From the NCBI GenBank assembly GCA_964016885.1, contig OZ024744.1, positions 121,458,001-121,522,000 of the forward strand: a stretch of DNA of 64,000 nt, given 5' to 3'. Each line of letters starts with the position of its first letter. The stretch's first letter is position 1. Under the pieces are notes generated by a model, which was given only the letters and a program-made list of their open reading frames with translations, searched no databases and was not told the origin of the DNA. This DNA is from Eledone cirrhosa. Its lineage: Eukaryota. Below, piece after piece: positions 1 to 64,000 of the stretch. The position numbers and the translations under genes are program-made.

Positions 1-3000
1 TGTTAGATGGTTGGGTCATGTGATGAGGAAGTATGAAAGTGACTGGGTGAGAGGAATCAGAGGTAGTGATGGATGTTGTGAAGAGAGATAGTGTGAGATG
101 GTTGGGTCATGTGTTGAGGAAGGATAAAAGTAACTGGGTGAGTGGAATAGAGGTAGTGATGGATGTTGTGAAGAGAGATAGTGTGGGACGGTTGGGTCAT
201 GTGTTGAGGAAGTATGAAAGTGACTGGGTGAGAGGAATCAGAGGTAGTGATGGATGTTGTGAAGAGAGATAGTGTGAGATGGTTGGGTCATGTGTTGAGG
301 AAGGATAAAAGTGACTGGGTGAGAGGAATAGAGGTAGTGATGGATTTTTTGAAGAGAGATAGTGTGAGATGGTTGGGTCATGTGTTGAGGAAGGATAAAA
401 GTGACTGTGTGAGAGGAATAGAAGTAGTGATGGATGTTGTGAAGAGAGATAGTGTGAGATGGTTGGGTCATGTGTTGAGGAAGGATGAAAGCGACTGGGT
501 GAGAGGAATAGAGGTAGTGATGGATGTTGTGAAGAGAGATAGTGTGAGATGGTTGGGTCATGTGTTGAGGAAGTATGAAAGTGACTGGGTGAGAGGAATA
601 GAGGTAGTGATGGATGTTGTGAAGAGAGATAGTGTGAGATGGTTGGGTCATATGTTGAGGAAGGATAAAAGTGACTGGGTGAGAGGAATAGAGGTAGTGA
701 TGGATGTTGTGAGGAGAGATAGTGTGAGATGGTTGGTTCATGTGTTGAGGAAGTATGAAAGTGACTGGGTGAGAGGAATAGAGGTAGAGATGGATGTTGT
801 GAAGAGAGATAGTGTGAGATGGTTGGGTCATGTGTTGAGGAAGTATGAAAGTGACTGGGTGAGAGGAATAGAGGTAGTGATGGATGTTGTGAAGAGAGAT
901 AGTGTGAGATGGTTGGGTCATGTGTTGAGGAAGGATAAAATTGATTGGGTGAGAGGAATAGAGGTAGTGATGGATGTTGTGAAGAGAGATCGTGTGAGAT
1001 GGTTGGGTCATGTGTTGAGGAAGTATAAAAGTGACTGGGTGAGAGGAATAGAGGTAGTGATGGATGTTGGGAAGAGAGATAGTGTGAGATGGTTGGGTCA
1101 TGTGTTGAGGAAGGATGAAAGTGACTGGGTGAGAGGAATAGAGGTAGTTATGGATGTTGTGAAGAGAGATAGTGTGAGATGGTTGGGTCATGTGTTGAGG
1201 AAGTATGAAAGTGACTGGGTGAGAGGAATAGAGGTAGTGATGGATGTTGTGAAGAGAGATAGTGTGAGATGGTTGGGTCATGTGTTGAGGAAGGATAAAA
1301 TTGATTGGGTGAGAGGAATAGAGGTAGTTATGGATGTTGTGAAGAGAGTTAGTGTGAGATGGTTGGGTCATGTGTTGAGGAAGGATAAAAGTGACTGGGT
1401 GAGTGGAATAGAGGTAGTGATGGATGTTGTGAAGAGAGATAGTGTGGGACGGTTCGGTCATCTGTTGAGGAAGTATGAAAATGACTGGGTGAGAGGAATC
1501 AGAGGTAGTGATGGATGTTGTGAAGAGAAATAGTGTGAGATGGTTGGGTCATGTGTTGAGGAAGGATGAAAGTGACTGGGTGAGAGGAATAGAGGTAGTT
1601 ATGGATGTTGTGAAGAGAGATAGTGTGAGATGGTTGGGTCATGTGTTGAGGAAGGATGAAAGTGACTGGGTGACAGGAATAGAGGTAGTTATGGATGTTG
1701 TGAAGAGAGATAGTGTGAGATGGTTGGGTCATGTGTTGAGGAAGGATAAAAGTGACTGGGTGAGTGGAATAGAGGTAGTGATGGATGTTGTGAAGAGAGA
1801 TAGTGTGGGACGGTTCGGTCATCTGTTGAGGAAGTATGAAAATGACTGGGTGAGAGGAATCAGAGGTAGTGATGGATGTTGTGAAGAGAAATAGTGTGAG
1901 ATGGTTGGGTCATGTGTTGAGGAAGGATAAAAGTGACTGGGTAAGAGGAATAGATGTCGTGATGGATGTTGTGAAGAGAGATAGTGTGAGATGGTTCGGT
2001 CATGAGTTGAGGGAGTATGAAAGTGACGGGGTGAGAGGAATAGAGGTAGTGATGGATGTTGTGAAGAAAGATAGTGAGATGGTTGGGTCATGTGTTGAGG
2101 AAGGTTGAATGTGAATGGGTGAAGGAATAGAGGTAGTGATGGATGTTGTGAAGAGAGATAGTGTGGGACGGTTGGGTCATGTGTTGAGGAAGTATGAAAG
2201 TGACTGGGTGAGAGGAATCAGAGGTAGTGATGGCTGTTGTGAAGAGAGATAGTGTGAGATGGTTGGGTCATGTGTTGAGGAAGGATAAAAGTGACTGGGT
2301 GAGAGGAATAGAGGTAGTGATGGATGTTGTGAAGAGAGATAGTGTTAGACGGTTGGGTCATGTGATGAGGAAGGTTAAAAGTGACTGGGTGAGTGGAATA
2401 GAGAGGTAGTGATGGATGTTGTAAAGAGAGATAGTGTGAGATGGTTGGGTCATGTGTTGAGGAAGGATAAAAGTGACTGGGTGAGAGGAATAGAGGTAGT
2501 GACGGATGTTGTGAAGAGAGATAGTGTGAGATGGTTGGGTCATGTGTTGAGGAAGGATGAAAGTGACTGGGTGAGAGGAATAGAGGTAGTGATGGATGTT
2601 GTGAAGAGAGATAGTGTGAGATGGTTGGGTCATGTGTTGAGGAAGTATGAAAGTGACTGGGTGAGAGGAATAGAGGTAGTGATGGATGTTGTGAAGAGAG
2701 ATAGTGTGAGATGGTTGGGTCATATGTTGAGGAAGGATAAAAGTGACTGGGTGAGAGGAATAGAGGTAGTGATGGATGTTGTGAGGAGAGATAGTGTGAG
2801 ATGGTTGGTTCATGTGTTGAGGAAGTATGAAAGTGACTGGGTGAGAGGAATAGAGGTAGTGATAGATGTTGTGAAGAGAGATAGTGTGAGATGGTTGGGT
2901 CATGTGTTGAGGAAGTATGAAAGTGACTGGGTGAGAGGAATAGAGGTAGAGATGGATGTTGTGAAGAGAGATAGTGTGAGATGGTTGGGTCATGTGTTGA

Positions 3001-6000
3001 GGAAGTATGAAAGTGACTGGGTGAGAGGAATAGAGGTAGTGATGGATGTTGTGAAGAGAGATAGTGTGAGATGGTTGGGTCATGTGTTGAGGAAGGATAA
3101 AATTGATTGGGTGAGAGGAATAGAGGTAGTGATGGATGTTGTGAAGAGAGATCGTGTGAGATGGTTGGGTCATGTGTTGAGGAAGGATAAAAGTGACTGG
3201 GTGAGAGGAATAGAGGTAGTGGTGGATGTTAGGAAGAGAGATAGTGTGAGATGGTTGGATCATGTGTTGAGGAAGTATAAAAGTGACTGGGTGAGAGGAA
3301 TAGAGGTATTGATGGATGTTGTGAAGAGAGATAGTGTGAGATGGTTGGGTCCTGTGTTGAGGAAGGATGAAAGTGACTGGGTGAGAGGAACAGAGGTAGT
3401 GATGGATGTTGTGAAGAGAGATAGTGTGAGATGGTTTGGTCATGTGTTGAGGAAGGATAAAAGTGACTGGGTGAGTGGAATAGAGGTAGTGATGGATGTT
3501 TTGAAGAGAGATAGTGTGAGATGGTTGGGTCATGTGTTGAGGAAGGATAAAAGTGACTGGGTGAGAGGAATAGAGTTAGTGATGGATGTTGTGAAGAGAG
3601 ATAGTGTGAGATGGTTGGGTCATGTGTTAAGGAAGTATGAATGTGACTGGGTGAGAGGAATAGAGGTAGTTATGGATGTTGTGAAGAGAGATAGTGTGAG
3701 ATGGTTGGGTCATGTGTTGAGGAAGGATAAAAGTGACTGGGTGAGAGGAATAGAGGTAGTGATGGATGTTGTGAAGAGAGATAGTGTGAGATGGTTGGGT
3801 CATGTGTTGAGGAAGGATTAAAGTGACTGGGTGAGAGGAATAGAGGTAGTGATGGATGTTGTGAAGAGAGATAGTGTGAGATGGTTGGGTCATGTGTTGA
3901 GGAAGTATAAAAGTGACTGGGTGAGAGGAATAGAGGTAGTGATGGATGCTGTGAAGAGAGATAGTGTGAGATGGTTGGGTCATGTGTTGAGAAAGGATTA
4001 AAGTGACTGAGTGAGAGGAATTAGAGGTAGTGATGGATGTTGTGAAGAGAGATAGTGTGAGACGGTTCGGTCATGTGTTGAGGAAGTATGAAAATGACTG
4101 GGTGAGAGGAATCAGAGGTAGTGATGGATGTTGTGAAGAGAAATAGTGTGAGATGGTTGGGTCATGTGTTGAGGAGGATAAAAGTGACTGGGTAAGAGGA
4201 ATAGATGTAGTGATGGATGTTGTGAAGAGAGATAGTGTGAGATGGTTCGGTCATGTGTTGAGGAAGTATGAAAGTGACTGGGTAAGAGGAATAGAGGTAG
4301 TGATGGATGTTGTGAAAAGAGATAGCGTGAGATGGTTAGGTCATGTATTGAGGAAGTATGAAAGTGACTGGGTGAGAGGAATAGAGGTTGTGATGGATGT
4401 TGTGAAGAGAGATAGTGAGATGGTTGGGTCATGTGTTGAGGAAGGTTGAATGTGAATGGGTGAGAGGAATAGAGGTAGTGATGGATGTTGTGAAGAGAGA
4501 TAGTGTAAGATGGTATGGTCATGTGTTGAGGAAGGATAAAAGTGACTGGGTGAGAGGAATAGAGGTAGTGATGGATGTTGTGAAGAGAAATAGTGTGAGA
4601 TGGTTGGGTCATGTGTTGAGGAAGGATAAAAGTGACTGGGTGAGAGGAATAGAGGTAGTGATGGATGTTGTGAAGAGAGATAGTGTGAGATGGTTGGGTC
4701 ATGTGTTGAGGAAGGATAAAAGTGACTGGGTGAGAGGAATACAGGTAGTGATGTATGTTGTGAAGAGAGATAGTGTAAGATGGTATGGTCATGTGTTGAG
4801 GAAGGATAAAAGTGACTGGGTGAGAGGAATAGAGGTAGTGATGGATGTTGTGAAGAGAGATAGTGTGAGATGGTTGGGTCATGTGTTGAGGAAGGATAAA
4901 AGTGACTGGGTGAGAGGAATAGAGGTAGTGATGGATGTTGTGAAGAGAGATAGTGTGAGATGGTTGGGTCATGTGTTGAGGAAGGATAAAAGTGACTGTG
5001 TGAGAGGAATAGAGGTAGTGATGGATGTTGTGAAGAGAGATAGTGTGAGATGGTTGGGTCATGTGTTGAGGAAGGATAAAAGTGACTGGGTGAGAGGAAT
5101 AGAGGTAGTGATGGATGTTGTGAAGAGAGATAGTGTGAGATGGTTGGGTCATGTGTTGAGGAAGGATAAAAGTGACTGGGTGAGAGTAATAGAGGTAGTG
5201 ATGGATGTTGTGAAGAGAGATAGTGTGAGATGGTTGGGTCATGTGTTGAGGAAGAATGAAAGTGACTGGGTGAGAGGCACAGAAGTAGTGATGGATGTTG
5301 TGAAGAGAGATAGTGTGAGATGGTTGGGTCATGTGTTGAGGAAGGATAAAAGTGACTGGGTGAGAGGAGTAGAGGTAGTGATGGATGTTGTGAAGAGAGA
5401 TAATGTGAGATGGTTGGGTCATGTGTTGAGGAAGGATAAAAGTGACTGTGTGAGAGGAATAGAGGTAGTGATGGATATTGTGAAGAGAGATAGTGTGAGA
5501 TGGTTGGGTCATGTGATGAGGAAGGATAAAAGTGACGGGGTGAGAGGAATAGAGGTAGTGATGGATGTTGTGAAGAGAGATAGTGTGAGATGGTTGGGTC
5601 ATGTGTTGAGGAAGGATAAAAGTGACTGGGTGAGAGGAATAGAGGTAGTGATGGATGTTGTGAAGAGAGATAGTGTGAGATGGTTGGGTCATGTGTTGAG
5701 GAAGGATAAAAGTGACTGGGTGAGAGTAATAGAGGTAGTGATGGATGTTATGAAGAGAGATAGTGTGAGATGGTTGGGTCATGTGTTGAGGAAGAATGAA
5801 AGTGACTGGGTGAGAGGCACGGAAGTAGTGATGAATGTTGTGAAGAGAGATAGTGTGAGATGGTTGGGTCATGTGTTGAGGAAGGATAAAAGTGACTGGG
5901 TGAGAGGAATAGAGGTAGTGATGGATGTTGTGAAGAGAGATAGTGTGAGATGGTTGGGTCATGTGTTGAGGAAGGATAAAAGTGACTGGGTGAGAGGAAT

Positions 6001-6024
6001 AGAGGTAGTGATGGATGTTGTGAA
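1..6024 (+). repeat. SatA: 90-bp tandem satellite (about 67 monomers, open at window start) derived from RTE-type LINE ORF2 C-terminal region
   Basis: Consensus GGAATAGAGGTAGTGATGGATGTTGTGAAGAGAGATAGTGTGAGATGGTTGGGTCATGTGTTGAGGAAGGATAAAAGTGACTGGGTGAGA, with a 90-nt period read directly. It translates to GIEVVMDVVKRDSVRWLGHVLRKDKSDWVR, containing the RWxGHVxR motif of RTE ORF2. Occasional 88-92-bp variants. Ends abruptly at ...GTTGTGAA 6024. Confidence 0.95.
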
Positions 6025-6098: not shown

Positions 6099-6300
6099 AA
6101 ATCATCATCATTCTTCCATGCTAACATCGGTTAGACGGGTTGTCCTGTTTTGGGCAGTGTCCGGTCAGCTGACCTTGACTTGCTCATACGGGAACTTTTC
6201 TGGCTTGATTTCTACAGCTGGATGCCCTTCCTAACACCATCCTTATTTACAGTGAGTGCTAGATGCTTTTTTGCCGTAGCACCTCCACGACCACTTTGCA
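6099..6300 (-). mobile_element. SINE fragment with RTE-type 3' tail
   Basis: Minus strand reads GGTGTTAGGAAGGGCATCCAGCTGTAGAAA (a conserved SINE body motif, from recall) and ends ACCCGTCTAACCGATGTTAGCATGGAAGAATGATGATGAT, a (GAT)n tail typical of RTE-mobilised elements. Confidence 0.55.
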
Positions 6301-6349
6301 GTGGGAGGGTATGAGGTCATATTGTCTATATGCTTCAGCTTCAGCTTGT

Positions 6350-6895
6350 ACCCATGGGGGGGGGGGGGTCTTCTGTATTACTGCGTGACGCCAGAGGTCA
6401 CGGTCCTGTGTCATCGCCCTTGAGAGGTGAAATTGGCCAAGGTCAGCTCCTATCACCTCATCCCAGGTCTTCTTGAGTCTCTGCACCTTTTTATGCAGCT
6501 GTCCTCCTTCATATGCATCACATGTCCATACCAACGCAATCTCCTCTCTAGTATACAGCATTTGATTCCCCTTATGTTTAGTCTCTCTCTCAATTCATTT
6601 ATGCTTTGCCACTCATGTATATTACTATTACATATCCAACGGAGCATGCAGGCTTCATTTCTTTCTAATCTACGCAAGTGTTCTACAGACAGCGCCCAAG
6701 TCTCACTACCATGTAACATTGCTGTTCGTATACACACATCATACAGTCTGTCTTTCATTTTGAGGGAAAAGCCTTTTGCAGCTAGCAGTGGCAGTAGCTC
6801 CCTGAACTTCTTCCATCCCATTCTTACCCTGGTTATTGTACTTTCTGAACACCCACCTCTGTTGCTAATTCAGTCACCTAGGTAACAGAAGCTAT
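6350..6895 (-). mobile_element. 5'-truncated, decayed RTE-clade LINE (end of RT, thumb and C-terminus)
   Basis: Minus-strand translation FCYLGD*ISNRGGCSESTITRVRMGWKKFRELLPLL...LYDVCIRTAMLHGSETW...MLRWIC...ELRERLNIRGIKCCILERRLRWYGHVMHM, then frameshifted KKTWDEVI...QDRDLWRHAV. These are RTE hallmarks (YLG, HGSETW, RLRWYGHV, DR..WR). Contains an in-frame stop and a deletion/frameshift. Confidence 0.9.
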
Positions 6896-7037
6896 TATTT
6901 ATATTTAATTAAATATTGTTTATATTTAATTAAAATTGGTTTATATTTAATTATTTGTTGTTTATAATTTGTTAACCTTGTTTTTAGGGAAATTCTATAT
7001 AGAATTATAGTATTATCAACAAATGTGCTACATAATA

Positions 7038-7265: not shown

Positions 7266-7620
7266 CTATACTCTCGGCCATTTCCCTTCACATCCAAACA
7301 AAAACTTATTGACTGAAATCCCTCCATCTAGTAGTTCAGTCCTAACTCTGTTGTAGCAGTTCAAACAAAGAATATGACCAACAATACTTAGAAAAATAAA
7401 GCAGCCTATCAAAATAGAAAGTTTGTGTTTTTTGTATTTTAGCCAACACTGCAACCCTCGGTAACAATCATAGAACCAACACTGCAACCTGTTCCTCATA
7501 AAATCAACAAGCTGTTCTGCTTCCCGAAATACAGCCAGTTTGTTTTGGTCCCTTACCAGAGAGATCTCAATCAGCCCTGTGGAAACCCCATTCTTGCCAC
7601 TTCTCAAGCATGATAGAGCT
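7266..7620 (-). other. Unique open stretch, possible degenerate exon of a membrane protein (possibly the GT22 gene)
   Basis: About 117 non-repetitive open codons with a hydrophobic segment LSILIGCFIFLSIVGH, loosely recalling the S-x-x-x-H-K-E-x-R-F motif of GT22 mannosyltransferases but lacking KExRF. Same strand as the exon at 16281-16542. No clear splice sites. Confidence 0.2.
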
Positions 7621-9021: not shown

Positions 9022-9564
9022 AGTACTGAGGTTGATATATCAAGGTAGTGCCCCAGTATGGCCACAGTCTAATGACTGACACCAGTAAAACAGTAGTGAG
9101 GTTGATATGGTAGACTATATCAAGGTAGTGCCCCAGTATGGCCACAATCTAATGACTGACACCAGTGAAACAGTACTGAGGTTGATATGGTAGATATATG
9201 AAGGTAGTGCCCCAGTATGGCCATTGTTTAATGACTGACACCAGTAAAACAGTTTTGAGGTTGATATGGTAGACTATATCAAGGTAGTGTCCCAGTATGG
9301 CCACAGTCTAATGACTGACACCAGTAAAACAGTACTGAGGTTGATATGGTAGACTATATCAAGGTAGTGCCCCAGTATGGCCACAGTTTAATGACTGACA
9401 CCAGTAAAACAGTACTGAGGTTGATATGGTAGACTATATCAAGGTAGTGCCCCAGTATGGCCACAGTCCAATGACTGACACCAGTAAAACTGTACTGAGG
9501 TTGATATGGTAGATATATGAAAGTAGTGCCCCAGTATGGCCACAGTCTAATGACTGACACCAGT
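9022..9564 (+). repeat. 80-bp minisatellite (about 7 copies), probably SINE-derived
   Basis: Unit AGTACTGAGGTTGATATGGTAGACTATATCAAGGTAGTGCCCCAGTATGGCCACAGTCTAATGACTGACACCAGTAAAAC (9331 to 9411 = 80 nt), with 78-bp and shorter variants. Confidence 0.9.

Positions 9565-16218: not shown

Positions 16219-16252
<34 letters not shown>
14805..16252. repeat. Degenerate (GGT)n tract of about 1.45 kb ending in (GAT)n, with an internal duplication of about 0.3 kb
   Basis: Near-continuous GGT triplets with variants. The block ending GGGGCTGATGATGACAATAATGATA occurs twice (about 15860 and 16190). Confidence 0.95.
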
Positions 16253-19680: not shown

Positions 19681-19798
19681 GATGGATGTGATGTATGTAT
19701 GTGTAGGAACTGAGATGTATGTATGTGTAGGAACTGAGAGAGAAACTAGGTATAAAAGGAATCAGATGTAGTGTGTAGGAGAGGAGACTGTGTTGGTA
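19681..19798 (+). repeat. Detached partial SatB monomer
   Basis: GAACTGAGAGAGAAACTAGGTATAAAAGGAATCAGATGTAGTGTGTAGGAGAGGAGACTGTGTTGGTA (19731-19798), preceded by an approximately 24-nt duplication GATGTATGTATGTGTAGGAACTGA. Confidence 0.9.
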
Positions 19799-47300: not shown

Positions 47301-50300
47301 ACTAGGTATAAGAGGAATCAGATGTAGTGTGTAGGAGAGGAGACTGTGTTGGTGTAGACATGTGATGTGTATGGATGAACTGAGAGAGAAACTAGGTATA
47401 AGAGGAATCAGATGTAGTGTGTAGGAGAGGAGAGTGTGTTGGTATATACATGTGATGTGTATGGATGAACAGAGAGGGAAACTCGGTATAAGAGGAATCA
47501 GATGTAGTGTGTAGGAGAGGAGAGAGTGTTGGTATAGACATGTGATGTGAATGGATGAACTGAGAGAGAAACTAGGTATAAGAGGAATCAGATGAAGGAG
47601 AGGAGACTGTGTTGGTATAGACATGTGATGTGTATGGATGAACTGAGGGAGAAATTGGGAATAAAAGACATCAGATGTAATGTGTAGGAGAGGACACTGT
47701 GTTGGTATAGACATGTGATGTGTATGGATGAACTGAGAGAGAAATTGGGAATAAAAGGAATCAGATGAAGGACAGGAGACTGTGTTGGTATAGACATGTG
47801 ATGTGTATGGATGAACTGAGAGAGAAACTAGGTATAAGAGGAATCAGATGTAGGAGAGGAGACTGTGTTGGTATAGACATGGGATGTGTATGGATGAACT
47901 GAGATAGAAACTAGGTATAAGAGGAATCAGATGTAGGAGAGGAGACTGTGTTGGTATAGACATGTGATGTGTATGGATGAACTGAGAGAGAAACTAGGTA
48001 TAAGAGGGATCAGATGTAGTGTGTATGAGAGGAGACTGTGTTGGTATAGACATGTGATGTGTATGGATGAACTGAGAGAGAAACTACGTATGAGAGGAAT
48101 CAGATGTAGTGTGTAGGAGAAGAGACTGTGTTGTGATAGACATGTGATGTGTATGGATGAACTGAGAGAGAAACTAGGTATCAAAGCAATTAGATGTAGT
48201 GTGTAGGAGAGGAGACTGTGTTGCTATAGACATGTGATGTGTGTGGATGAACTGAGGGAGAAATTGGGAATAAGAGGAATCAGATGTAGTGTGTAGGAGA
48301 GGAGACTGTGTTGGTATAGACATGTGATGTGTATGGATGAAGTGAGAGAGAACCTAGGTATAAGAGGAATCAGACTGAGAGAGAACCTAGGTATCAGAGG
48401 AATCAGATATAGTGTGTAGGAGAGAAACAAGATGTAGTGTGTAGTAGAGTTTACTGTGTTGGTATAGACATGTGATGTGTATGAATGAACTGAGAGAGAA
48501 ACTAGGTATAAGAGGTATCAGATGTAGTGTGTAGGAGAGGAGACTGTGTTGGTATAGACATGTGATGTGTATGGATGAACTGAGAGAGAAACCGGCTATA
48601 AGAGGAATCAGATGTAGTATGTAGGAGAGGAGACTGTCTTGCTATAGACATGTGATGTGTATGGATGAACTGAGAGAGAAACTAGGTATAAGACGAATCA
48701 GATATAGGAGAGGAGACTGTGTTGGTATAGACATGGGATGTGTATGGATAAACTGAGAGAGAAACTAGGTATAAGAGGAATCAGATGAAGGAGAGGAGAC
48801 TGTGTTGGTATAGACATGTGATGTGTATGGATGAACTGAGAGAGAAACTCGGTATAAGAGGAATCAGATGTAGGAGAGGAGACTGTGTTGGTATAGACAT
48901 GGGATGTGTATGGATGAACTGAGATAGAAACTAGGTATAAGAGGAATCAGATGTAGGAGAGGAGACTGTGTTGGTATAGACATGTGATGTGTATGGATGA
49001 ACTGAGAGAGAAACTAGGTATAAGAGGAATCACATGTAGTGTGTAGGAGAGGAGACTGTGTTGGTATAGACATGTGATGTGTATGGATGAACTGAGAGAG
49101 AAACTAGGTATAAGAGGAATCAGACGTAGTGTGTAGGAGAGGAGACTGTGTTGGTATAGACATGTGATGTGTATGGATGAACTGAGAGAGAAACTAGTTA
49201 TAAGAGGAATCAGATATAGTGTTTAGGAGAGGAGACTGTGTTGGTATAGACATGTGATGTGTATGGATGAACTGAGGGAGAAATTGGGAATAAAAGACAT
49301 CAGATGTAATGTGTAGGAGAGGAGACTGTGTTGGTATAGACATGTGATGTGTATGGATGAACTGAGAGAGAAATTGGGAATAAAAGGAATCAGATGAAGG
49401 AGAGGAGACTGTGTTGGTATAGACATGTGATGTGTATGGATGAACTGAGAGAGAAATTAGGCATAAGAGGAATCAGATGTAGGAGAGGAGACTGTGTTGG
49501 TATAGACATGTGATGTGTATGGATGAAATGAGAGAGAAACTAGGTATAAGAGGAATCAGATGTAGGAGAGGAGACTGTGTTGGTATAGACATGGGATGTG
49601 TATGGATGAACTGAGAGAGAAACTAGGTATAAGAGGAATCAGATGTAGGAGAGGAGACTGTGTTGGTATAGACATGTGATGTGTATGGATGAACTGAGAG
49701 AGAAACTAGGTATAAGAGGAATCAGATGAAGGAGAGGAGACTGTGTTGGTATAGACATGTGATGTGTATGGATGAACTGAGAGAGAAACTCGGTATAAGA
49801 GGAATCAGATGTAATATGTAGGAGAGGAGACTGTGTTGGTATAGACATGTGATGTGTATGCATGAACTTAGAGAGAAAATAGGTATAAGAGGAATCAGAT
49901 GTAGTGTGTAGGAGAGGAGACTGTGTTGGTGTAGACATGTGATGTGTATGGATGAACTGAGAGAGATACTAGGTATAAGAGGAATCAGATGTAGTGTGTA
50001 GGAGAGGAGACTGTGTTGGTGTAGACATGTGATGTGTATGGATGAACTGAGAGAGAAACTAGGTATAAGAGGAATCAGATGTAGTGTGTAGGAGAGGAGA
50101 GTGTGTTGGTATATACATGTGATGTGTATGGATGAACAGAGAGGGAAACTCGGTATAAGAGGAATCAGATGTAGTGTGTAGGAGAGGAGAGAGTGTTGGT
50201 ATAGACATGTGATGTGAATGGATGAACTGAGAGAGAAACTAGGTATAAGAGGAATCAGATGAAGGAGAGGAGACTGTGTTGGTATAGACATGTGATGTGT

Positions 50301-53300
50301 ATGGATGAACTGAGGGAGAAATTGGGAATAAAAGACATCAGATGTAATGTGTAGGAGAGGACACTGTGTTGGTATAGACATGTGATGTGTATGGATGAAC
50401 TGAGAGAGAAATTGGGAATAAAAGGAATCAGATGAAGGAGAGGAGACTGTGTTGGTATAGACATGTGATGTGTATGGATGAACTGAGAGAGAAACTAGGT
50501 ATAAGAGGAATCAGATGTAGGAGAGGAGACTGTGTTGGTATAGACATGGGATGTGTATGGATGAACTGAGATAGAAACTAGGTATAAGAGGAATCAGATG
50601 TAGGAGAGGAGACTGTGTTGGTATAGACATGTGATGTGTATGGATGAACTGAGAGAGAAACTAGGTATAAGAGGGATCAGATGTAGTGTGTATGAGAGGA
50701 GACTGTGTTAGTATAGACATGTGATGTGTATGGATGAACTGAGAGAGAAACTAGGTATGAGAGGAATCAGATGTAGTGTGTAGGAGAAGAGACTGTGTTG
50801 TGATAGACATGTGATGTGTATGGATGAACTGAGAGAGAAACTAGGTATCAAAGGAATTAGATGTAGTGTGTAGGAGAGGAGACTGTGTTGGTATAGACAT
50901 GTGATGTGTGTGGATTAACTGAGGGAGAAATTGGGAATAAGAGGAATCAGATGTAGTGTGTAGGAGAGGAGACTGTGTTGGTATAGACATGTGATGTGTA
51001 TGGATGAAGTGAGAGAGAACCTAGGTATAAGAGGAATCAGACTGAGAGAGAAACTAGGTATCAGAGGAATCAGATATATTGTGTAGGAGAGAAACAAGAT
51101 GTAGTGTGTAGTAGAGTTTACTGTGTTGTTATAGACATGTGATGTGTATGAATGAACTGAGAGAGAAACTAGGTATAAGAGCTATCAGATGTAGTGTGTA
51201 GGAGAGGAGACTGTGTTGGTATAGACATGTGATGTGTATGGATGAACTGAGAGAGAAACCGGCTATAAGAGGAATCAGATGTAGTATGTAGGAGAGGAGA
51301 CTGTCTTGCTATAGACATGTGATGTGTATGGATGAACTGAGAGAGAAACTAGGTATAAGACGAATCAGATATAGGAGAGGAGACTGTGTTGGTATAGACA
51401 TGGGATGTGTATGGATAAACTGAGAGAGAAACTAGGTATAAGAGGAATCAGATGAAGGAGAGGAGACTGTGTTGGTAGAGACATGTGATGTGTATGGATG
51501 AACTGAGAGAGAAACTCGGTATAAGAGGAATCAGATGTAGGAGAGGAGACTGTGTTGGTATAGACATGGGATGTGTATGGATGAACTGAGATAGAAACTA
51601 GGTATAAGAGGAATCAGATGTAGGAGAGGAGACTGTGTTGGTATAGACATGTGATGTGTATGGATGAACTGAGAGAGAAACTAGGTATAAGAGGAATCAC
51701 ATGTAGTGTGTAGGAGAGGAGACTGTGTTGGTATAGACATGTGATGTGTATGGATGAACTGAGAGAGAAACTAGGTATAAGAGGAATCAGACGTAGTGTG
51801 TAGGAGAGGAGACTGTGTTGGTATAGACATGTGATGTGTATGGATGAACTGAGAGAGAAACTAGTTATAAGAGGAATCAGATATAGTGTTTAGGAGAGGA
51901 GACTGTGTTGGTATAGACATGTGATGTGTATGGATGAACTGAGAGAGAAACTAGGTATAAGAGAAATCAGATGTAGTGTGTAGGAAAGGAGACTGTGTTG
52001 GTATAGACATGTGATGTGTATGGATGAACTGAGAGAGAAACTAGGTATAAGAGGAATCAGATGAAGGAGAGGAGACTGTGTTGGTATAGACATGTGATGT
52101 GTATGGATGAACTGAGAGAGAAACTCGGTATAAGAGGAATCAGATGTAAGAGAGGAGACTGTGTTGGTATAGATATGGGATGTGTATGGATGAACTGAGA
52201 TAGAAACTATGTATAAGAGGAATCAGATGTAGGAGAGGAGACTGTGTTGGTATAGACATGTGATGTGTATGGATGAACTGAGAGAGAAACTAGGTATAAG
52301 AGGAATCAGATGTAGTGTGTATGAAAGGAGACTGTGTTGTTATAGACATGTGATGTGTATGGATGAACTGAGAGAAAAACCGGCTATAAGAGGAATCAGA
52401 TGTAGTGTGTAGGAGAGGAGATTGTGTTGGTGTAGACATGTAATGTGTATGGATGAACTGAGGGAGAAACTGGGTATAAGAGGAATCAGATGTAATGTGT
52501 AGGAGAGGAGACTGTGTTGGTATAGACATGTGATGTGTATGCATGAACTTAGAGAGAAACTAGGTATAAGAGGAATCAGATGTAGTGTGTAGGAGAGGAG
52601 ACTGTGTTGGTGTAGACATGTGATGTGTATGGATGAACTGAGAGAGAAACTAGGTATAAGAGGAATCAGATGTAGTGTGTAGGAGAGGAGAGTGTGTTGG
52701 TATATACATGTGATGTGTATGGATGAACAGAGAGGGGAAACTCGGTATAAGAGGAATCAGATGTAGTGTGTAGGAGAGGAGAGAGTGTTGGTATAGACAT
52801 GTGATGTGAATGGATGAACTGAGAGAGAAACTAGGTATAAGAGGAATCAGATGAAGGAGAGGAGACTGTGTTGGTATAGACATGTGATGTGTATGGATGA
52901 ACTGAGGGAGAAATTGGGAATAAAAGACATCAGATGTAATGTGTAGGAGAGGAGACTGTGTTGGTATAGACATGTGATGTGTATGGATGAACTGAGAGAG
53001 AAATTGGGAATAAAAGGAATCAGATGAAGGAGAGGAGACTGTGTTGATATAGACATGTGATGTGTATGGATGAACTGAAAGAGAAACTAGGCATAAGAGG
53101 AATCAGATGTAGGAGAGGAGACTGTGTTGGTATAGACATGTGATGTGTATGGATGAACTGAGAGAGAAACTAGGTATAAGAGGAATCAGATGTAGGAGAG
53201 GAGACTGTGTTGGTATAGACATGGGATGTGTATGGATGAACTGAGAGAGAAACTAGGTATAAGAGGAATCAGATGTAGGAGAGGAGACTGTGTTGGTATA

Positions 53301-56300
53301 GACATGTGATGTGTATGGATGAACTGAGAGAGAAACTAGGTATAAGAGGAATCAGATGAAAGAGAGGAGACTGTGTTGGTATAGACATGTGATGTGTATG
53401 GATGAACTGAGAGAGAAACTCGGTATAAGAGGAATCAGATGTAGGAGAGGAGACTGTGTTGGTATAGATATGGGATGTGTATGGATGAACTGAGAGAGAA
53501 ACTAGGTATAAGAGGAATCAGATGTAGGAGAGGAGACTGTGTTGGTATAGACGTGTGATGTGTATGGATGAACTGAGAGAGAAACTAGGTATAAGAGGGA
53601 TCAGATGTAGTGTGTATGAGAGGAGACTGTGTTGGTATAGACATGTGATGTGTATGGATGAACTGAGAGTGAAACTAGGTATGAGAGGAATCAGATGTAG
53701 TGTGTAGGAGAAGAGACTGTGTTGTGATAGACATGTGATGTGTATGGATGAACTGAGAGAGAAACTAGGTATCAAAAGAATCAGATGTAGTGTGTAGGAG
53801 AGGAGACTGTGTTGGTATAGACATGTGATGTGTGTGGATGAACTGAGGGAGAAATTGGGAATAAGAGGAATCAGATGTAGTGTGTAGGAGAGGAGACTGT
53901 GTTGGTATAGACATGTGATGTGTATGGATGAAGTGAGAGAGAACCTAGGTATAAGAGGAATCAGACTGAGAGAGAAACTAGGTATCAGAGGAATCAGATA
54001 TAGTGTGTAGGAGAGAAACAAGATGTAGTGTGTAGTAGAGTTTACTGTGTTGGTATAGACATGTGATGTGTATGAATGAACTGAGAGAGAAACTAGGTAT
54101 AAGAGGTATCAGATGTAGTGTGTAGGAGAGGTGACTGTGTTGGTATAGACATGTAATGTGTATGGATGAACTGAGAGAGAACCTAGGTATAAGAGGAATC
54201 AGATGTAGGAGAGGAGACTGTGTTGGTGTAGACATGTGATGTGTATGGATGAACTGAGAGAGAAACCGGCTATAAGAGGAATCAGATGTAGTATGTGGGA
54301 GAGGAGCCTGTCTTGCTATAGACATGTGATGTGTATGGATGAACTGAGAGAGAAACTAGGTATAAGAGGAATCAGATATAGAAGAGGAGACTGTGTTGGT
54401 ATAGACATGGGATGTGTATGGATAAACTGAGAGAGAAACTAGGTGTAAGAGGAATCAGATGAAGGAGAGGAGACTGTGTTGGTATAGACATGTGATGTGT
54501 ATGGATGAACTAAGAGAGAAACTCGGTATAAGAGGAATCAGATGTAGGAGAGGAGACTGTGTTGGTATAGACATGGGATGTGTATGGATGAACTGAGATA
54601 GAAACTAGGTATAAGAGGAATCAGATGTAGGAGAGGAGACTGTGTTAGTATAGACATGTGATGTGTATGGATGAACTGAGAGAGAAACTAGGTATAAGAG
54701 GAATCAGATGTAGTGTGTAGGAGAGGAGACTGTGTTGGTATAGACATGTGATGTGTATGGATGAAGTGAGAGATAAACTAGGTATAAGAGGAATCAGACG
54801 TAGTGTGTAGGAGAGGAGACTGTGTTGGTATAGATATGTGATGTGTATGGATGAACTGAGAGAAAAACCGGCTATAAGAGGAATCAGATGTAGTGTGTAG
54901 GAGAGGAGACTGTGTTGGTATAGACATGTGATGTTTATGGATGAACTGAGAGAGAAACTGGGTATAAGAGGAATCAGATGTAGTGTGTAGGAGAGGAGAC
55001 TGTGTTGGTGTAGACATGTAATGTGTATGGATGAACTGAGGGAGAAACTGGGTATAAGAGGAATCAGATGTAATGTGTAGGAGAGGAGACTGTGTTGGTA
55101 TAGACATGTGATGTGTATGGATGAACAGAGAGGGAAACTCGGTATAAGAGGAATCAGATGTAGTGTGTAGGAGAGGAGAGAGTGTTGGTATAGACATGTG
55201 ATGTGAATGGATGAACTGAGAGAGAAACTAGGTATAAGAGGAATCAGATGAAGGAGAGGAGACTGTGTTGGTATAGACATGTGATGTGTATGGATGAACT
55301 GAGAGAGAAACTAGACATAAGAGGAATCAGATGTAGGAGAGGAGACTGTGTTGGTATAGACATGTGATGTGTATGGATGAACTGAGAGAGAAACTAGGTA
55401 TAAGAGGAATCAGATGTAGGAGAGGAGACTGTGTTGGTATAGACATGGGATGTGTATGGATGAACTGAGAGAGAAACTAGGTATAAGAGGAATCAGATGT
55501 AGGAGAGGAGACTGTGTTGGTATAGACATGTGATGTGTATGGATGAACTGAGAGAGAAACTAGGTATAAGAGGAATCAGATGAAGGAGAGGAGACTGTGT
55601 TGGTATAGACATGTGATGTGTATGGATGAACTGAGAGAGAAACTCGGTATAAGAGGGATCAGATGTAGTGTGTATGAGAGGAGACTGTGTTGGTATAGAC
55701 ATGTGATGTGTATGGATGAACTGAGAGAGAAACTAGGTATAAGAGAAATCAGATGTAGTGTGTAGGAAAGGAGACTGTGTTGGTATAGACATGTGATGTG
55801 TATGGATGAACTGAGAGAGAAACTAGGTATAAGAGGAATCACATGAAGGAGAGGAGACTGTGTTGGTATAGACATGTGATGTGTATGGATGAACTGAGAG
55901 AGAAACTCGGTATAAGAGGAATCAGATGTAAGAGAGGAGACTGTGTTGGTATAGATATGGGATGTGTATGGATGAACTGAGATAGAAACTATGTATAAGA
56001 GGAATCAGATGTAGGAGAGGAGACTATGTTGGTATAGACATGTGATGTGTATGGATGAACTGAGAGAGAAACTAGGTATAAGAGGAATCAGATGTAGTGT
56101 GTATGAAAGGAGACTGTGTTGTTATAGACATGTGATGTGTATGGATGAACTGAGAGAAAAACCGGCTATAAGAGGAATCAGATGTAGTGTGTAGGAGAGG
56201 AGACTGTGTTGGTGTAGACATGTAATGTGTATGGATGAACTGAGGGAGAAACTGGGTATAAGAGGAATCAGATGTAATGTGTAGGAGAGGAGACTGTGTT

Positions 56301-59300
56301 GGTATAGACATTTGATGTGTATGCATGAACTTAGAGAGAAACTAGGTATAAGAGGAATCAGATGTAGTGTGTAGGAGAGGAGACTGTGTTGGTGTAGACA
56401 TGTGATGTGTATGGATGAACTGAGAGAGATACTAGGTAAAAGAGGAATCAGATGTAGTGTGTAGGAGAGGAGAGTGTGTTGGTATATACATGTGATGTGT
56501 ATGGATGAACAGAGAGGGGAAACTCGGTATAAGAGGAATCAGATGTAGTGTGTAGGAGAGGAGAGAGTGTTGGTATAGACATGTGATGTGAATGGATGAA
56601 CTGAGAGAGAAACTAGGTATAAGAGGAATCAGATGAAGGAGAGGAGACTGTGTTGGTATAGACATGTGATGTGTATGGATGAACTGAGGGAGAAATTGGG
56701 AATAAAAGACATCAGATGTAATGTGTAGGAGAGGAGACTGTGTTGGTATAGACATGTGATGTGTATGGATGAACTGAGAGAGAAATTGGGAATAAAAGGA
56801 ATCAGATGAAGGAGAGGAGACTGTGTTGGTATAGACATGTGATGTGTATGGATGAACTGAAAGAGAAACTAGGCATAAGAGGAATCAGATGTAGGAGAGG
56901 AGACTGTGTTGGTATAGACATGTGATGTGTATGGATGAACTGAGAGAGAAACTAGGTATAAGAGGAATCAGATGTAGGAGAGGAGACTGTGTTGGTATAG
57001 ACATGGGATGTGTATGGATGAACTGAGAGAGAAACTAGGTATAAGAGGAATCAGATGTAGGAGAGGAGACTGTGTTGGTATAGACATGTGATGTGTATGG
57101 ATGAACTGAGAGAGAAACTAGGTATAAGAGGAATCAGATGAAAGAGAGGAGACTGTGTTGGTATAGACATGTGATGTGTATGGATGAACTGAGAGAGAAA
57201 CTCGGTATAAGAGGAATCAGATGTAGGAGAGGAGACTGTGTTGTTATAGATATGGGATGTGTATGGATGAACTGAGAGAGAAACTAGGTATAAGAGGAAT
57301 CAGATGTAGGAGAGGAGACTGTGTTGGTATAGACGTGTGATGTGTATGGATGAACTGAGAGAGAAACTAGGTATAAGAGGGATCAGATGTAGTGTGTATG
57401 AGAGGAGACTGTGTTGGTATAGACATGTGATGTGTATGGATGAACTGAGAGAGAAACTAGGTATGAGAGGAATCAGATGTAGTGTGTAGGAGAAGAGACT
57501 GTGTTGTGATAGACATGTGATGTGTATGGATGAACTGAGAGAGAAACTAGGTATCAAAGGAATCAGATGTAGTGTGTAGGAGAGGAGACTGTGTTGGTAT
57601 AGACATGTGATGTGTGTGGATGAACTGAGGGAGAAATTGGGAATAAGAGGAATCAGATGTAGTGTGTAGGAGAGGAGACTGTGTTGGTATAGACATGTGA
57701 TGTGTATGGATGAAGTGAGAGAGAACCTAGGTATAAGAGGAATCAGACTGAGAAAGAAACTAGGTATCAGAGGAATCAGATATAGTGTGTAGGAGAGAAA
57801 CAAGATGTAGTGTGTAGTAGAGTTTACTGTGTTGGTATAGACATGTGATGTGTATGAATGAACTGAGAGAGAAACTAGGTATAAGAGGTATCAGATGTAG
57901 TGTGTAGGAGAGGTGACTGTGTTGGTATAGACATGTAATGTGTATGGATGAACTGAGAGAGAACCTAGGTATAAGAGGAATCAGATGTAGGAGAGGAGAC
58001 TGTGTTGGTGTAGACATGTGATGTGTATGGATGAACTGAGAGAGAAACCGGCTATAAGAGGAATCAGATGTAGTATGTGGGAGAGGAGCCTGTCTTGCTA
58101 TAGACATGTGATGTGTATGGATGAACTGAGAGAGAAACTAGGTATAAGAGGAATCAGATATAGAAGAGGAGACTGTGTTGGTATAGACATGGGATGTGTA
58201 TGGATAAACTGAGAGAGAAACTAGGTGTAAGAGGAATCAGATGAAGGAGAGGAGACTGTGTTGGTATAGACATGTGATGTGTATGGATGAACTAAGAGAG
58301 AAACTCGGTATAAGAGGAATCAGATGTAGGAGAGGAGACTGTGTTGGTATAGACATGGGATGTGTATGGATGAACTGAGATAGAAACTAGGTATAAGAGG
58401 AATCAGATGTAGGAGAGGAGATTGTGTTAGTATAGACATGTGATGTGTATGGATGAACTGAGAGAGAAACTAGGTATAAGAGGAATCAGATGTAGTGTGT
58501 AGGAGAGGAGACTGTGTTGGTATAGACATGTGATGTGTATGGATGAAGTGAGAGATAAACTAGGTATAAGAGGAATCAGACGTAGTGTGTAGGAGAGGAG
58601 ACTGTGTTGGTATAGATATTGGGTGTGTATGGATGAACTGAGAGAAAAACCGGCTATAAGAGGAATCAGATGTAGTGTGTAGGAGAGGAGACTGTGTTGG
58701 TATAGACATGTGATGTTTATGGATGAACTGAGAGAGAAACTGGGTATAAGAGGAATCAGATGTAGTGTGTAGGAGAGGAGACTGTGTTGGTGTAGACATG
58801 TAATGTGTATGGATGAACTGAGGGAGAAACTGGGTATCAGAGGAATCAGATGTAATGTGTAGGAGAGGAGACTGTGTTGGTATAGACATGTGATGTGTAT
58901 GGATGAACAGAGAGGGAAACTCGGTATAAGAGGAATCAGATGTAGTGTGTAGGAGAGGAGAGAGTGTTGGTATAGACATGTGATGTGAATGGATGAACTG
59001 AGAGAGAAATTAGGTATAAGAGGAATCAGATGAAGGAGAGGAGACTGTGTTGGTATAGACATGTGATGTGTATGGATGAACTGAGAGAGAAACTAGGTAT
59101 AAGAGGAATCAGATGTAGGAGAGGAGACTGTGTTGGTATAGACATGGGATGTGTATGGATGAACTGAGAGAGAAACTAGGTATAAGAGGAATCAGATGTA
59201 GGAGAGGAGACTGTGTTGGTATAGACATGTGATGTGTATGGATGAACTGAGAGAGAAACTAGGTATAAGAGGAATCAGATGAAGGAGAGGAGACTGTGTT

Positions 59301-62300
59301 GGTATAGACATGTGATGTGTATGGATGAACTGAGAGAGAAACTCGGTATAAGAGGAATCAGATGTAGGAGAGGAGACTGTGTTGGTATAGACATGTGATG
59401 TGGATGGATGAACTGAGAGAGAAACTAGGTATAAGAGGGATCAGATGTAGTGTGTATGAGAGGAGACTGTGTTGGTATAGACATGTGATGTGTATGGATG
59501 AACTGAGAGAGAAACTAGGTATGAGAGGAATCAGATGTAGTGTGTAGGAGAAGAGACTGTGTTGTGATAGACATGTGATGTGTATGGATGAACTGAGAGA
59601 GAAACTAGGTATCAAAGGAATCAGATGTAGTGTGTAGGAGAGGAGACTGTGTTGGTATAGACATGTGATGTGTGTGGATGAACTGAGGGAGAAATTGGGA
59701 ATAAGAGGAATCAGATGTAGTGTGTAGGAGAGGAGACTATGTTGGTATAGACATGTGATGTGTATGGATGAAGTGAGAGAGAACCTAGGTATAAGAGGAA
59801 TCAGACTGAGAGAGAAACTAGGTATCAGAGGAATCAGATATAGTGTGTAGGAGAGAAACAAGATGTAGTGTGTAGTAGAGTTTACTGTGTTGGTATAGAC
59901 ATGTGATGTGTATGAATGAACTGAGAGAGAAACTAGGTATAAGAGGTATCAGATGTAGTGTGTAGGAGAGGTGACTGTGTTGGTATAGACATGTAATGTG
60001 TATGGATGAACTGAGAGAGAACCTAGGTATAAGAGGAATCAGATGTAGGAGAGGAGACTGTGTTGGTGTAGACATGTGATGTGTATGGATGAACTGAGAG
60101 AGAAACCGGCTATAAGAGGAATCAGATGTAGTATGTGGGAGAGGAGCCTGTCTTGCTATAGACATGTGATGTGTATGGATGAACTGAGAGAGAAACTAGG
60201 TATAAGAGGAATCAGATGTAGGAGAGGAGACTGTGTTGGTATAGACATGGGATGTGTATGGATGAACTGAGATAGAAACTAGGTATAAGAGGAATCAGAT
60301 GTAGGAGAGGAGACTGTGTTAGTATAGACATGTGATGTGTATGGATGAACTGAGAGAGAAACTAGGTATAAGAGGAATCAGATGTAGTGTGTAGGAGAGG
60401 AGACTGTGTTGGTATAGACATGTGATGTGTATGGATGAAGTGAGAGAGAAACTAGGTATAAGAGGAATCAGATATAGGAGAGGAGACTGTGTTGGTATAG
60501 ACATGTGATGTGTATGGATGAACTGAGAGAGAAACTAGGTATAAGAGGAATCAGATGAAGGAGAGGAGACTGTGTTGGTATAGACATGTGATGTGTATGG
60601 ATGAACTGAGAGAGAAACTCGGTATAAGAGGAATCAGATGTAGGAGAGGAGACTGTGTTGGTATAGACATGGGATGTGTATGGATGAACTGAGATAGAAA
60701 CTAGGTATAAGAGGAATCAGATGTAGGAGAGGAGACTGTGTTGGTATAGACGTGTGATGTGTATGGATGAACTGAGAGAGAAACTAGGTATAAGAGGGAT
60801 CAGATGTAGTGTGTATGAGAGGAGACTGTGTTGGTATAGACATGTGATGTGTATGGATGAACTGAGAGAGAAACTAGGTATGAGAGGAATCAGATGTAGT
60901 GTGTAGGAGAAGAGACTGTGTTGTGATAGACATGTGATGTGTATGGATGAACTGAGAGAGAAACTAGGTATCAAAGGAATCAGATGTAGTGTGTAGGAGA
61001 GGAGACTGTGTTGGTATAGACATGTGATGTGTGTGGATGAACTGAGGGAGAAATTGGGAATAAGAGGAATCAGATGTAGTGTGTAGGAGAGGAGACTGTG
61101 TTGGTATAGACATGTGATGTGTATGGATGAAGTGAGAGAGAATCTAGGTATAAGAGGAATCAGACTGAGAGAGAAACTAGGTATCAGAGGAATCAGATAT
61201 AGTGTGTAGGAGAGAAACAAGATGTAGTGTGTAGTAGAGTTTACTGTGTTGGTATAGACATGTGATGTGTATGAATGAACTGAGAGAGAAACTAGGTATA
61301 AGAGGTATCAGATGTAGTGTGTAGGAGAGGTGACTGTGTTGGTATAGACATGTAATGTGTATGGATGAACTGAGAGAGAACCTAGGTATAAGAGGAATCA
61401 GATGTAGGAGAGGAGACTGTGTTGGTGTAGACATGTGATGTGTATGGATGAACTGAGAGAGAAACCGGCTATAAGAGGAATCAGATGTAGTATGTGGGAG
61501 AGGAGCCTGTCTTGCTATAGACATGTGATGTGTATGGATGAACTGAGAGAGAAACTAGGTATAAGAGGAATCAGATATAGAAGAGGAGACTGTGTTGGTA
61601 TAGACATGGGATGTGTATGGATAAACTGAGAGAGAAACTAGGTGTAAGAGGAATCAGATGAAGGAGAGGAGACTGTGTTGGTATAGACATGTGATGTGTA
61701 TGGATGAACTAAGAGAGAAACTCGGTATAAGAGGAATCAGATGTAGGAGAGGAGACTGTGTTGGTATAGACATGGGATGTGTATGGATGAACTGAGATAG
61801 AAACTAGGTATAAGAGGAATCAGATGTAGGAGAGGAGACTGTGTTAGTATAGACATGTGATGTGTATGGATGAACTGAGAGAGAAACTAGGTATAAGAGG
61901 AATCAGATGTAGTGTGTAGGAGAGGAGACTGTGTTGGTATAGACATGTGATGTGTATGGATGAAGTGAGAGATAAACTAGGTATAAGAGGAATCAGACGT
62001 AGTGTGTAGGAGAGGAGACTGTGTTGGTATAGATATGTGATGTGTATGGATGAACTGAGAGAAAAACCGGCTATAAGAGGAATCAGATGTAGTGTGTAGG
62101 AGAGGAGACTGTGTTGGTATAGACATGTGATGTTTATGGATGAACTGAGAGAGAAACTGGGTATAAGAGGAATCAGATGTAGTGTGTAGGAGAGGAGACT
62201 GTGTTGGTGTAGACATGTAATGTGTATGGATGAACTGAGGGAGAAACTGGGTATCAGAGGAATCAGATGTAATGTGTAGGAGAGGAGACTGTGTTGGTAT

Positions 62301-64000
62301 AGACATGTGATGTGTATGGATGAACAGAGAGGGAAACTCGGTATAAGAGGAATCAGATGTAGTGTGTAGGAGAGGAGAGAGTGTTGGTATAGACATGTGA
62401 TGTGAATGGATGAACTGAGAGAGAAACTAGGTATAAGAGGAATCAGATGAAGGAGAGGAGACTGTGTTGGTATAGACATGTGATGTGTATGGATGAACTG
62501 AGGGAGAAATTGGGAATAAAAGACATCAGATGTAATGTGTAGGAGAGGAGACTGTGTTGGTATAGACATGTGATGTGTATGGATGAACTGAGAGAGAAAT
62601 TGGGAATAAAAGGAATCAGATGAAGGAGAGGAGACTGTGTTGGTATAGACATGTGATGTGTATGGATGAACTGAGAGAGAAACTAGACATAAGAGGAATC
62701 AGATGTAGGAGAGGAGACTGTGTTGGTATAGACATGTGATGTGTATGGATGAACTGAGAGAGAAACTAGGTATAAGAGGAATCAGATGTAGGAGAGGAGA
62801 CTGTGTTGGTATAGACATGGGATGTGTATGGATGAACTGAGAGAGAAACTAGGTATAAGAGGAATCAGATGTAGGAGAGGAGACTGTGTTGGTATAGACA
62901 TGTGATGTGTATGGATGAACTGAGAGAGAAACTAGGTATAAGAGGAATCAGATGAAAGAGAGGAGACTGTGTTGGTATAGACATGTGATGTGTATGGATG
63001 AACTGAGAGAGAAACTCGGTATAAGAGGAATCAGATGTAGGAGAGGAGACTGTGTTGTTATAGATATGGGATGTGTATGGATGAACTGAGAGAGAAACTA
63101 GGTATAAGAGGAATCAGATGTAGGAGAGGAGACTGTGTTGGTATAGACGTGTGATGTGTATGGATGAACTGAGAGAGAAACTAGGTATAAGAGGGATCAG
63201 ATGTAGTGTGTATGAGAGGAGACTGTGTTGGTATAGACATGTGATGTGTATGGATGAACTGAGAGAGAAACTAGGTATGAGAGGAATCAGATGTAGTGTG
63301 TAGGAGAAGAGACTGTGTTGTGATAGACATGTGATGTGTATGGATGAACTGAGAGAGAAACTAGGTATCAAAGGAATCAGATGTAGTGTGTAGGAGAGGA
63401 GACTGTGTTGGTATAGACATGTGATGTGTGTGGATGAACTGAGGGAGAAATTGGGAATAAGAGGAATCAGATGTAGTGTGTAGGAGAGGAGACTGTGTTG
63501 GTATAGACATGTGATGTGTATGGATGAAGTGAGAGAGAACCTAGGTATAAGAGGAATCAGACTGAGAAAGAAACTAGGTATCAGAGGAATCAGATATAGT
63601 GTGTAGGAGAGAAACAAGATGTAGTGTGTAGTAGAGTTTACTGTGTTGGTATAGACATGTGATGTGTATGAATGAACTGAGAGAGAAACTAGGTATAAGA
63701 GGTATCAGATGTAGTGTGTAGGAGAGGTGACTGTGTTGGTATAGACATGTAATGTGTATGGATGAACTGAGAGAGAACCTAGGTATAAGAGGAATCAGAT
63801 GTAGGAGAGGAGACTGTGTTGGTGTAGACATGTGATGTGTATGGATGAACTGAGAGAGAAACCGGCTATAAGAGGAATCAGATGTAGTATGTGGGAGAGG
63901 AGCCTGTCTTGCTATAGACATGTGATGTGTATGGATGAACTGAGAGAGAAACTAGGTATAAGAGGAATCAGATATAGAAGAGGAGACTGTGTTGGTATAG
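20316..64000 (+). repeat. SatB: over 43.6-kb satellite of 90-bp and 83-bp monomers (about 500) with kb-scale higher-order repeats, derived from RTE LINE ORF2
   Basis: Consensus ATGAACTGAGAGAGAAACTAGGTATAAGAGGAATCAGATGTAGTGTGTAGGAGAGGAGACTGTGTTGGTATAGACATGTGATGTGTATGG, translating DELREKLGIRGIRCSV*ERRLCWYRHVMCM. The 83-bp form lacks 7 nt between TGTAG direct repeats. There are also 80-bp and 94-bp variants and a rearranged variant. Open at window end. Confidence 0.97.

Follow-up and report, generated by a model that had tools for sequence, protein, structure and literature searches.

Here we describe two tandem satellites, SatA and SatB, in a 64,000-nucleotide stretch of Eledone cirrhosa DNA (the window: C28:121,458,001-121,522,000, within a 3.0-Gb assembly; C28 is contig OZ024744.1). 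Judged from ungapped matches to their parents, the two satellites are independently derived from two different families of long interspersed nuclear elements (LINEs), and both go back to nearly the same segment of the LINE open reading frame (ORF), the codons around an RWxGHV motif (hereafter the GH motif). Duplications of this segment recur in four RTE-type families. Overall, DNA repair with conversion appears to be the best explanation for SatA and SatB, and we give it a probability of roughly 0.55.

Two satellites with separate LINE parents

The features of the window that concern these satellites are as follows.

1..6024, plus strand: SatA array (Tandem Repeats Finder (TRF), monomers), 90-bp unit, right end of a ~415-kb block
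6100..6900 (ends approximate), minus strand: 5'-truncated copy of the abundant LINE family M with a trinucleotide tail, antisense, just past the SatA end
6480..6869, minus strand: 130-codon open stretch of the M copy, spanning the HGSETW and RWxGHV motifs
19690..19798, plus strand: isolated piece of a SatB monomer, containing a local 24-bp duplication, ~520 bp ahead of the array
20316..64000, plus strand: SatB array, left part of a ~114-kb block that continues to ~C28:121,591,900

As the sequence-only reading had described, two plus-strand tandem arrays lie about 14 kb apart (14.3 kb), with a main period of 90 bp in both (TRF on the window); the peptides and the local RTE copy that it quoted are also present, the latter being the minus-strand M element. 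Its description of both monomers as exactly 30 codons was too simple. Monomers of 90 bp account for 54 of 66 in SatA and for 263 of 487 in SatB, where another 194 measure 83 bp and the remaining 30 measure 80, 94, 238, 91 or 86 bp. Thus, SatB is a mixed 90/83 array. It also contains eight composite 238-bp units and higher-order blocks with recurrence distances of 783, 3782, 4203 and 6362 bp. The shared orientation of the two arrays carries little weight, since a larger SatA block lies on the minus strand 0.34 Mb away. The nucleotide divergence of the two satellites was confirmed: their 90-bp consensuses agreed at 44 of 90 positions at the best rotation, barely more than shuffled sequences did (P 0.04-0.06, 2000 shuffles each).

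SatA matched the consensus of the old LINE family O at 81 of 90 positions without gaps, a value that the choice of loci by SatA similarity (see below) may have lifted slightly, and four other consensuses at 41-50. SatB matched families M, K1 and K2 at 72-73 of 90 positions, also ungapped, compared with 49 for O and 42 for R; across this region O and M/K are ~68-69% alike. These ungapped parent matches establish two separate origins and rule out one ancestral satellite for both arrays. The mapping of both monomers on LINE consensuses, which had been proposed as a check, thus gave separate parents with cross-matches of at most 50 of 90, and the view that two RTE subfamilies each seeded one array was upheld. 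No common ancestor emerged, SatA did have an RTE-type match, and the LINE-derived duplications were not uniform in position and length.

Family O was found via a motif search that yielded one decayed copy (L221). The part of this copy upstream of the SatA window retrieved 30 loci, and the 19 that carried a SatA-like window gave the O consensus. Another motif search for the SatA parent found nothing, and protein searches with distant relatives returned the abundant families alone. The local element and the abundant families were both rejected as the source of SatA, as blastn gave no match in 58 and 30 loci; the profile matches of SatA to abundant families were weak only. A DNA search with SatB, in which common words were skipped, returned no match.

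Relative to the GH codons, the source window extends from -51 to +38 in SatA and from -72 to +17 in SatB, an overlap of 69 bases (23 codons) at an offset of 7 codons. The earlier claim that the monomers align in codon register over about 25 codons was therefore right about the shared window, but the offset is 7 codons and not 5, and the last two aligned SatB residues are derived from upstream sequence over the junction. The local M copy had been taken as a guide to both satellites. It is a relative of the SatB parent and not of the SatA parent; it matched SatB itself at 79% over 89 bases and SatA poorly.

The parents appear to be RTE-type LINEs, by architecture and motifs rather than by a reverse transcriptase (RT) tree. 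The long ORF of family M (1040 amino acids) contains Exo_endo_phos, RVT_1 and a PHD-like finger, and its best relative of solved structure was L1 ORF2p. The one homologue that carried a species name came from Octopus bimaculoides, and the nearest atlas clusters were molluscan. The O consensus reads as RT plus C-terminal region; families O, K and R are known from their 3' parts only. At two 5.5-kb loci no further ORF of more than 200 amino acids was found on the same strand, the 5' ends of the elements not being delimited. Motifs also suggest that family R is Rex3/Expander-like. At their 3' end, RTEs have a short untranslated region (UTR) followed by a run of short tandem repeats, and trinucleotide tails were observed on M, K and R copies, the O tail being less clear. 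Microsatellites have been described as common in RTEs (PMC9115989). RTE-clade LINEs of octopus such as RTE-2_OV have a single ORF of ~1,040-1,110 amino acids (PMC9115989), and the elements examined here resemble RTE-2_OV in having endonuclease, RT and zinc-binding module as well as a 3' microsatellite. It should be noted that the module scored here as a PHD finger, and that the two are likened by description and not by sequence identity. Internal arrays, which are present in the LINEs studied here, are not described for RTE-2_OV in the portions of that paper on which we draw.

Recurrent duplication at the GH window

A genome-wide pattern search for dimers at the GH motif gave 8730 matches. The stricter pattern of two GH motifs followed by downstream element sequence gave 361 matches, compared with 19,675 single motifs. 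Among the first 100 of these 361 matches listed, at least 69 loci were counted by hand, 53 of them in an 80-bp register and 7 at 71/75 bp; the remaining periods were 24, 38, 51, 63, 85, 88, 112 and 123 bp, and none was 90. One locus was not a pure element duplication (L395) and another also had 139-bp units (L403). Array periods at the GH window thus ranged from 24 to 139 bp, mostly ~80.

The same window was duplicated in each of the four families. Copies of R carry 65-, 93- and 124-bp duplications, some with both element flanks intact, for example 65 bp in 13 units (L260/L280) and 93 plus 65 bp (L279). Copies of K contain 38- and 80-bp arrays in place (L355-L370), and dimers were present in 2 of 19 O copies (L221, L236). 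Among the matches listed, the SatB junction was also found on C2, C4, C9, C12 and C18. The SatB-type array on C9 (L427) has ten units and runs into an intact element 3' part, and a copy on C22 (L426) has 88-bp units inside the element with both flanks kept. The SatA junction occurred at at least 48 loci among the first 100 of 4,968 matches listed; the one that was read (L425, C2:127,581,900-127,583,000) is a five-unit array in the SatA register with more parent-like bases than SatA. It sits between two exon-like stretches, which presumably belong to a DEAD-box helicase gene.

The 80-bp joint was also found in a run from another sample (X12), where 428 raw reads starting at 14 points contain it, the local read depth being inflated by a restriction site next to the joint. 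In a 981-bp K2 stretch it was the only backward joint among the 15 shown of 297 joints.

These duplications of one window in four families and at many loci support the idea of a repeatable satellite-generating process. To estimate how special the window is, we compared it with other parts of the same ORF. For the KKFRE control, which lies 287 bases upstream, 8 loci with 22 dimer matches were found against 13,842 single motifs, so that the GH window was at least sixfold higher per copy (at least 69 loci/19,675 vs 8/13,842). The WVHKR control gave 10 matches at 2 loci (single motifs uncounted). The HGSETW motif, with 2,366 matches and at least 13 loci among the first 100 listed, was a second hot window. 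Among 58 samples of 10 kb taken arbitrarily (L297-L354; 580 kb) we found 58 arrays of 20-250 bp, none of period 90. They covered 84 of 580 kb (14%), which indicates a genome very rich in minisatellites. Nine of them mapped to these LINE families, eight to the M 3' UTR and one to the GH window. The M 3' UTR has a built-in ~48-bp repeat, and its 48-bp arrays are the commonest LINE-derived minisatellite in the arbitrary samples. The RWxGHV window was thus correctly picked out as hot, but it is not the sole source, as HGSETW and the 3' UTR are hot too.

On the basis of these results, the shared source position of SatA and SatB is real, whereas the shared 90-bp length is likely a coincidence. Each 90-bp unit goes back to its own short match, at its own position in its own parent. 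The agreement in length is probably due to chance; no special status of 90 bp is visible in the other arrays of the GH window. Selection for this length or segment, through chromatin phasing or centromere function, an anti-LINE small RNA or a repeat peptide, appears very improbable. It is true that the two largest window arrays are both 90-bp based, and that two inverted SatA blocks (~415 and ~524 kb) within a block of at least 1.9 Mb resemble pericentromeric DNA. However, 83-bp monomers make up 40% of SatB units within the window, the large arrays nearby are built of units of 25, 42, 48, 64 and 82 bp, and period 90 was found in 0 of the 58 arbitrarily sampled arrays and in 0 of the 69 listed GH loci. 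SatA is also without coding constraint (830 synonymous variants vs 1075 expected; a stop in 200 of 1586 monomers), and 232 of the 263 SatB 90-mers contain a stop codon. A tandem-repeat protein gene under coding constraint was rejected on these grounds, there being no synonymous excess in SatA and stops being common in SatB. The open frame of SatA is inherited: RWxGHV marks the place, and it is the DNA that matters.

Origin and spread of the duplications

We propose that SatA and SatB would have started by microhomology-guided duplication, through DNA repair or recombination, inside genomic LINE copies. Ectopic conversion would then carry duplications between element copies, and growth to 0.1-0.5 Mb would take place solely inside a large satellite block. 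A window would be made hot by TG/ATG-rich sequence. The first duplication would thus occur on DNA, and not during reverse transcription, and would be spread by conversion.

Several observations are relevant to this proposal. First, junction microhomology averaged 3.5 bases in 14 registers, compared with 2.2 by chance (P ~0.0004), and at the SatB junction of one K1 copy two stretches 90 bases apart match perfectly over 7 bases. Second, only 2 of the 69 listed K-family GH arrays lie on C1-C4, four giant contigs with 54% of the assembly, compared with 78 of 150 single K-type copies (hand count). On C1-C3, 10 of the 13 listed HGSETW arrays are no more than 32 Mb away from an end of the contig. This bias to small chromosomes and chromosome ends is seen in the younger families. 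Third, five listed loci of the 71/75-bp register fall within 3 Mb of C13, and the three examined are separate insertions, 9-10% apart. Finally, 12 arrays in the 80-bp register comprised 7 with units of essentially one subfamily and 5 in which K1 and K2 units are mixed, unlike single copies, which are mostly of one subfamily type; the mixing points to repair or recombination at the DNA level. In two of the 12 (L406, L415) private bases recur in every unit, which shows growth in place after locus-private changes. The small-chromosome bias, the end bias and the local clustering of registers favour DNA-level events. Among the processes that had been listed as candidates, the evidence therefore leans away from RT jumps and rolling circles. 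Spread of array copies by segmental duplication was rejected, as 16 3' flanks gave only short matches, read as dispersed repeats; L408 and L413 have upstream sequence in common.

An alternative that we regard as possible but rather doubtful is duplication during retrotransposition, in which RT slips or jumps back, or passes from one transcript to another, at the window, array-bearing copies are retrotransposed and unequal exchange follows later. It would account for identical junctions in separate insertions with differing 5' ends and 3' flanks, and for the junction motif that the SatB arrays on C9, C18 and C28 have in common, the C9 array also having the derived bases of SatB. Arrays with units of two subfamilies could result from RT switching from one RNA template to another. 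On the other hand, it does not explain why K arrays avoid C1-C4 while K copies do not, why particular registers cluster locally in separate insertions, or why all units of an array have private bases in common.

A number of observations weigh against DNA repair with conversion, and some of them agree better with the RT alternative. The SatA junction showed no small-chromosome bias: its spread was proportional to contig size, with 24 of the 48 listed loci on C1-C4, a pattern that retrotransposition of an array-bearing master would produce. Three R copies have one 124-bp junction in common, as masters would also give. In the two-unit arrays L397 and L400 the difference between units is similar to that between flank and consensus, so that a late duplication is not shown there. 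The junction positions behind the microhomology estimate were set by eye after the arrays had been seen, and some matches are of only 1-3 bases; at the SatA junction family O has an exact match of 3 bases only. About 10 distinct registers occur among the 100 listed GH matches, compared with 8 in all for KKFRE, and 53 of the 69 listed loci are in the single 80-bp register and possibly not independent. With so few distinct registers, first duplications may be only modestly enriched at the GH window, and the excess may reflect spread and growth. In M and K, moreover, it is the hot windows and not the cold ones that abound in TG and ATG, but low complexity fails to account for family R; as a sole cause, which would fit M, K and O, it was rejected for this reason.

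The composition of the hot windows is also relevant to another possibility, that a DNA-binding factor (a PRDM9-like break placer or an array stabiliser) recognises a word of the TGGT/CATG type in them. TG/ATG-rich sequence in hot and not in cold windows would agree with this. Among 65 monomers retained of 88 sampled, after LINE-derived and duplicate ones had been dropped, TGGTA was present in 20 (6.6-7.5 expected) and CAGTG in 17 (4-6 expected). However, CATG and CATGTG remained below the multiple-testing threshold, so that CATGTG was rejected as a general minisatellite word, and the enriched words may stem from abundant short interspersed nuclear element (SINE) parents. We consider such a factor unlikely. 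In humans, meiotic breaks generate duplications flanked by microhomology, and more of them near telomeres (PMC7615360), which would also fit a break-placing factor. The arrays described here resemble that mutagenesis in junction microhomology and in the excess near chromosome ends (PMC7615360), a parallel that we offer as an analogy.

The satellite block on C28 and its neighbours

The arrays in the window belong to a much larger block. The plus-strand SatA block (~415 kb) occupies C28 ~121,048,800-121,464,000, the SatB block measures ~114 kb, and a second, minus-strand SatA block of ~524 kb extends from 121.80 to 122.33 Mb; interiors were sampled for all three lengths. With surrounding arrays of 64-, 48-, 42-, 25- and 82-bp units, the whole block spans at least 1.9 Mb, from 120.70 Mb or less to 122.60 Mb or more. 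Next to SatA, a 64-bp satellite from the RWxGHV window of the further family R occupies C28 ~120.70-121.006 Mb (L091, L092, L281-L287; at least 306 kb sampled, the left end not being reached), and 48-bp arrays from the M 3' UTR flank the SatA/SatB block (L093, L099, L145, L157, L288, L295, L296). All 40 scored SatA DNA candidates were on C28. Elsewhere, among the matches listed (through C20), SatA junctions were in short arrays, and on C18 one array of SatB extends for at least 26 kb. SatA-like pieces in two other organisms (C and D) were short and shallow and carry no weight here. Long head-to-tail arrays, collinear ungapped monomers and in-element intermediates are thus all present for SatA and SatB. 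A giant palindrome or assembly artefact was rejected, as the stretch that separates the SatA blocks shows no mirroring and raw reads contain the 80-bp joint.

Other large arrays in the block have 25-bp units that hold a telomere-like hexamer (L160, L291), 42-bp units (L110, L155, L156) and 82-bp units that match a dispersed SINE-like repeat (L292, L293). Parents of the 25-, 36-, 42- and 44-bp repeats were sought and none was found. Two SatA ends have an M-like element inserted in antisense orientation (window 6100-6900 and L154:1276-1900), and beyond the insertion in L154 lies a SatA monomer with more ancestral bases. In the spacer of the window, minisatellites (36 and 80 bp) and a long trinucleotide tract were observed at 7620-8781, 9036-9564 and 14805-16252, the 80-bp unit matching a dispersed repeat. 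Two broken LINEs of another type lie at 11283-14040 and 16600-18030, the first with RVT_1; we take their C-terminal regions to be restriction-like endonucleases (R4/Dong-like). At 16279-16460 on the minus strand there is a candidate host exon with a splice-donor-like end, which we presume to carry a GPI mannosyltransferase-like motif, although Pfam gave no support. Contig C28 (136.5 Mb) stands out of size order after the others and may be a candidate sex chromosome.

Satellites derived from mobile elements are known. In Lathyrus sativus, satellites have grown from short arrays inside long terminal repeat (LTR) retrotransposons (PMC7004042). The present case is similar in that short arrays occur in dispersed elements and few expand to long arrays, in one type of chromosomal region. 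It differs in that it concerns LINEs, which are non-LTR elements, in that coding sequence without a built-in repeat is the source, and in that homologous windows of divergent families are affected separately. LINE ORF2-derived satellites include chicken HinfI from CR1, and PROsat and Pvc 20 from L1 (PMC9659126). As in these, the monomers here come from LINE coding sequence; the published satellites are single cases, whereas here hot and cold windows of one ORF were counted and differ. Minisatellites from Alu, B1 and MaLR are likewise element-derived (PMC9659126), but unlike these and the human case, the arrays studied here reach hundreds of kb and mix subfamilies. For cephalopods, the main text of a 2026 repeat annotation of Octopus vulgaris uses neither 'satellite' nor 'centromer' (PMC13282606), and no description of RTE-ORF-derived satellites or octopus satellites was found in the open-licence literature, supplements excluded. 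Thus, LINE-derived satellites and in-element arrays were known, and position-specific satellite seeding across families is new here.

All stages are found for one window in one genome: dimers, in-element arrays of 3-20 units and arrays of 0.1-0.5 Mb. With four families involved, and with one ORF supplying both hot and cold windows for internal comparison, satellite birth becomes countable, and so does the role of recombination in it, within one assembly. This bears on the question left open by a 2022 review, which, where it discusses satellite sources, saw no conclusive evidence for a preference among element regions (PMC9659126). The analysis also names the C28 block as a candidate centromeric block. 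More speculatively, and on balance doubtfully, homologous coding windows of divergent LINE families may contain a DNA signal to which breaks or conversion are drawn, arrays may spread to neighbouring copies and across subfamilies, and four LINE-derived seeds may have built much of a possible centromere block. If this were true, formed arrays would spread like a contagious insertion, and the genome would be a ready library of satellite seeds.

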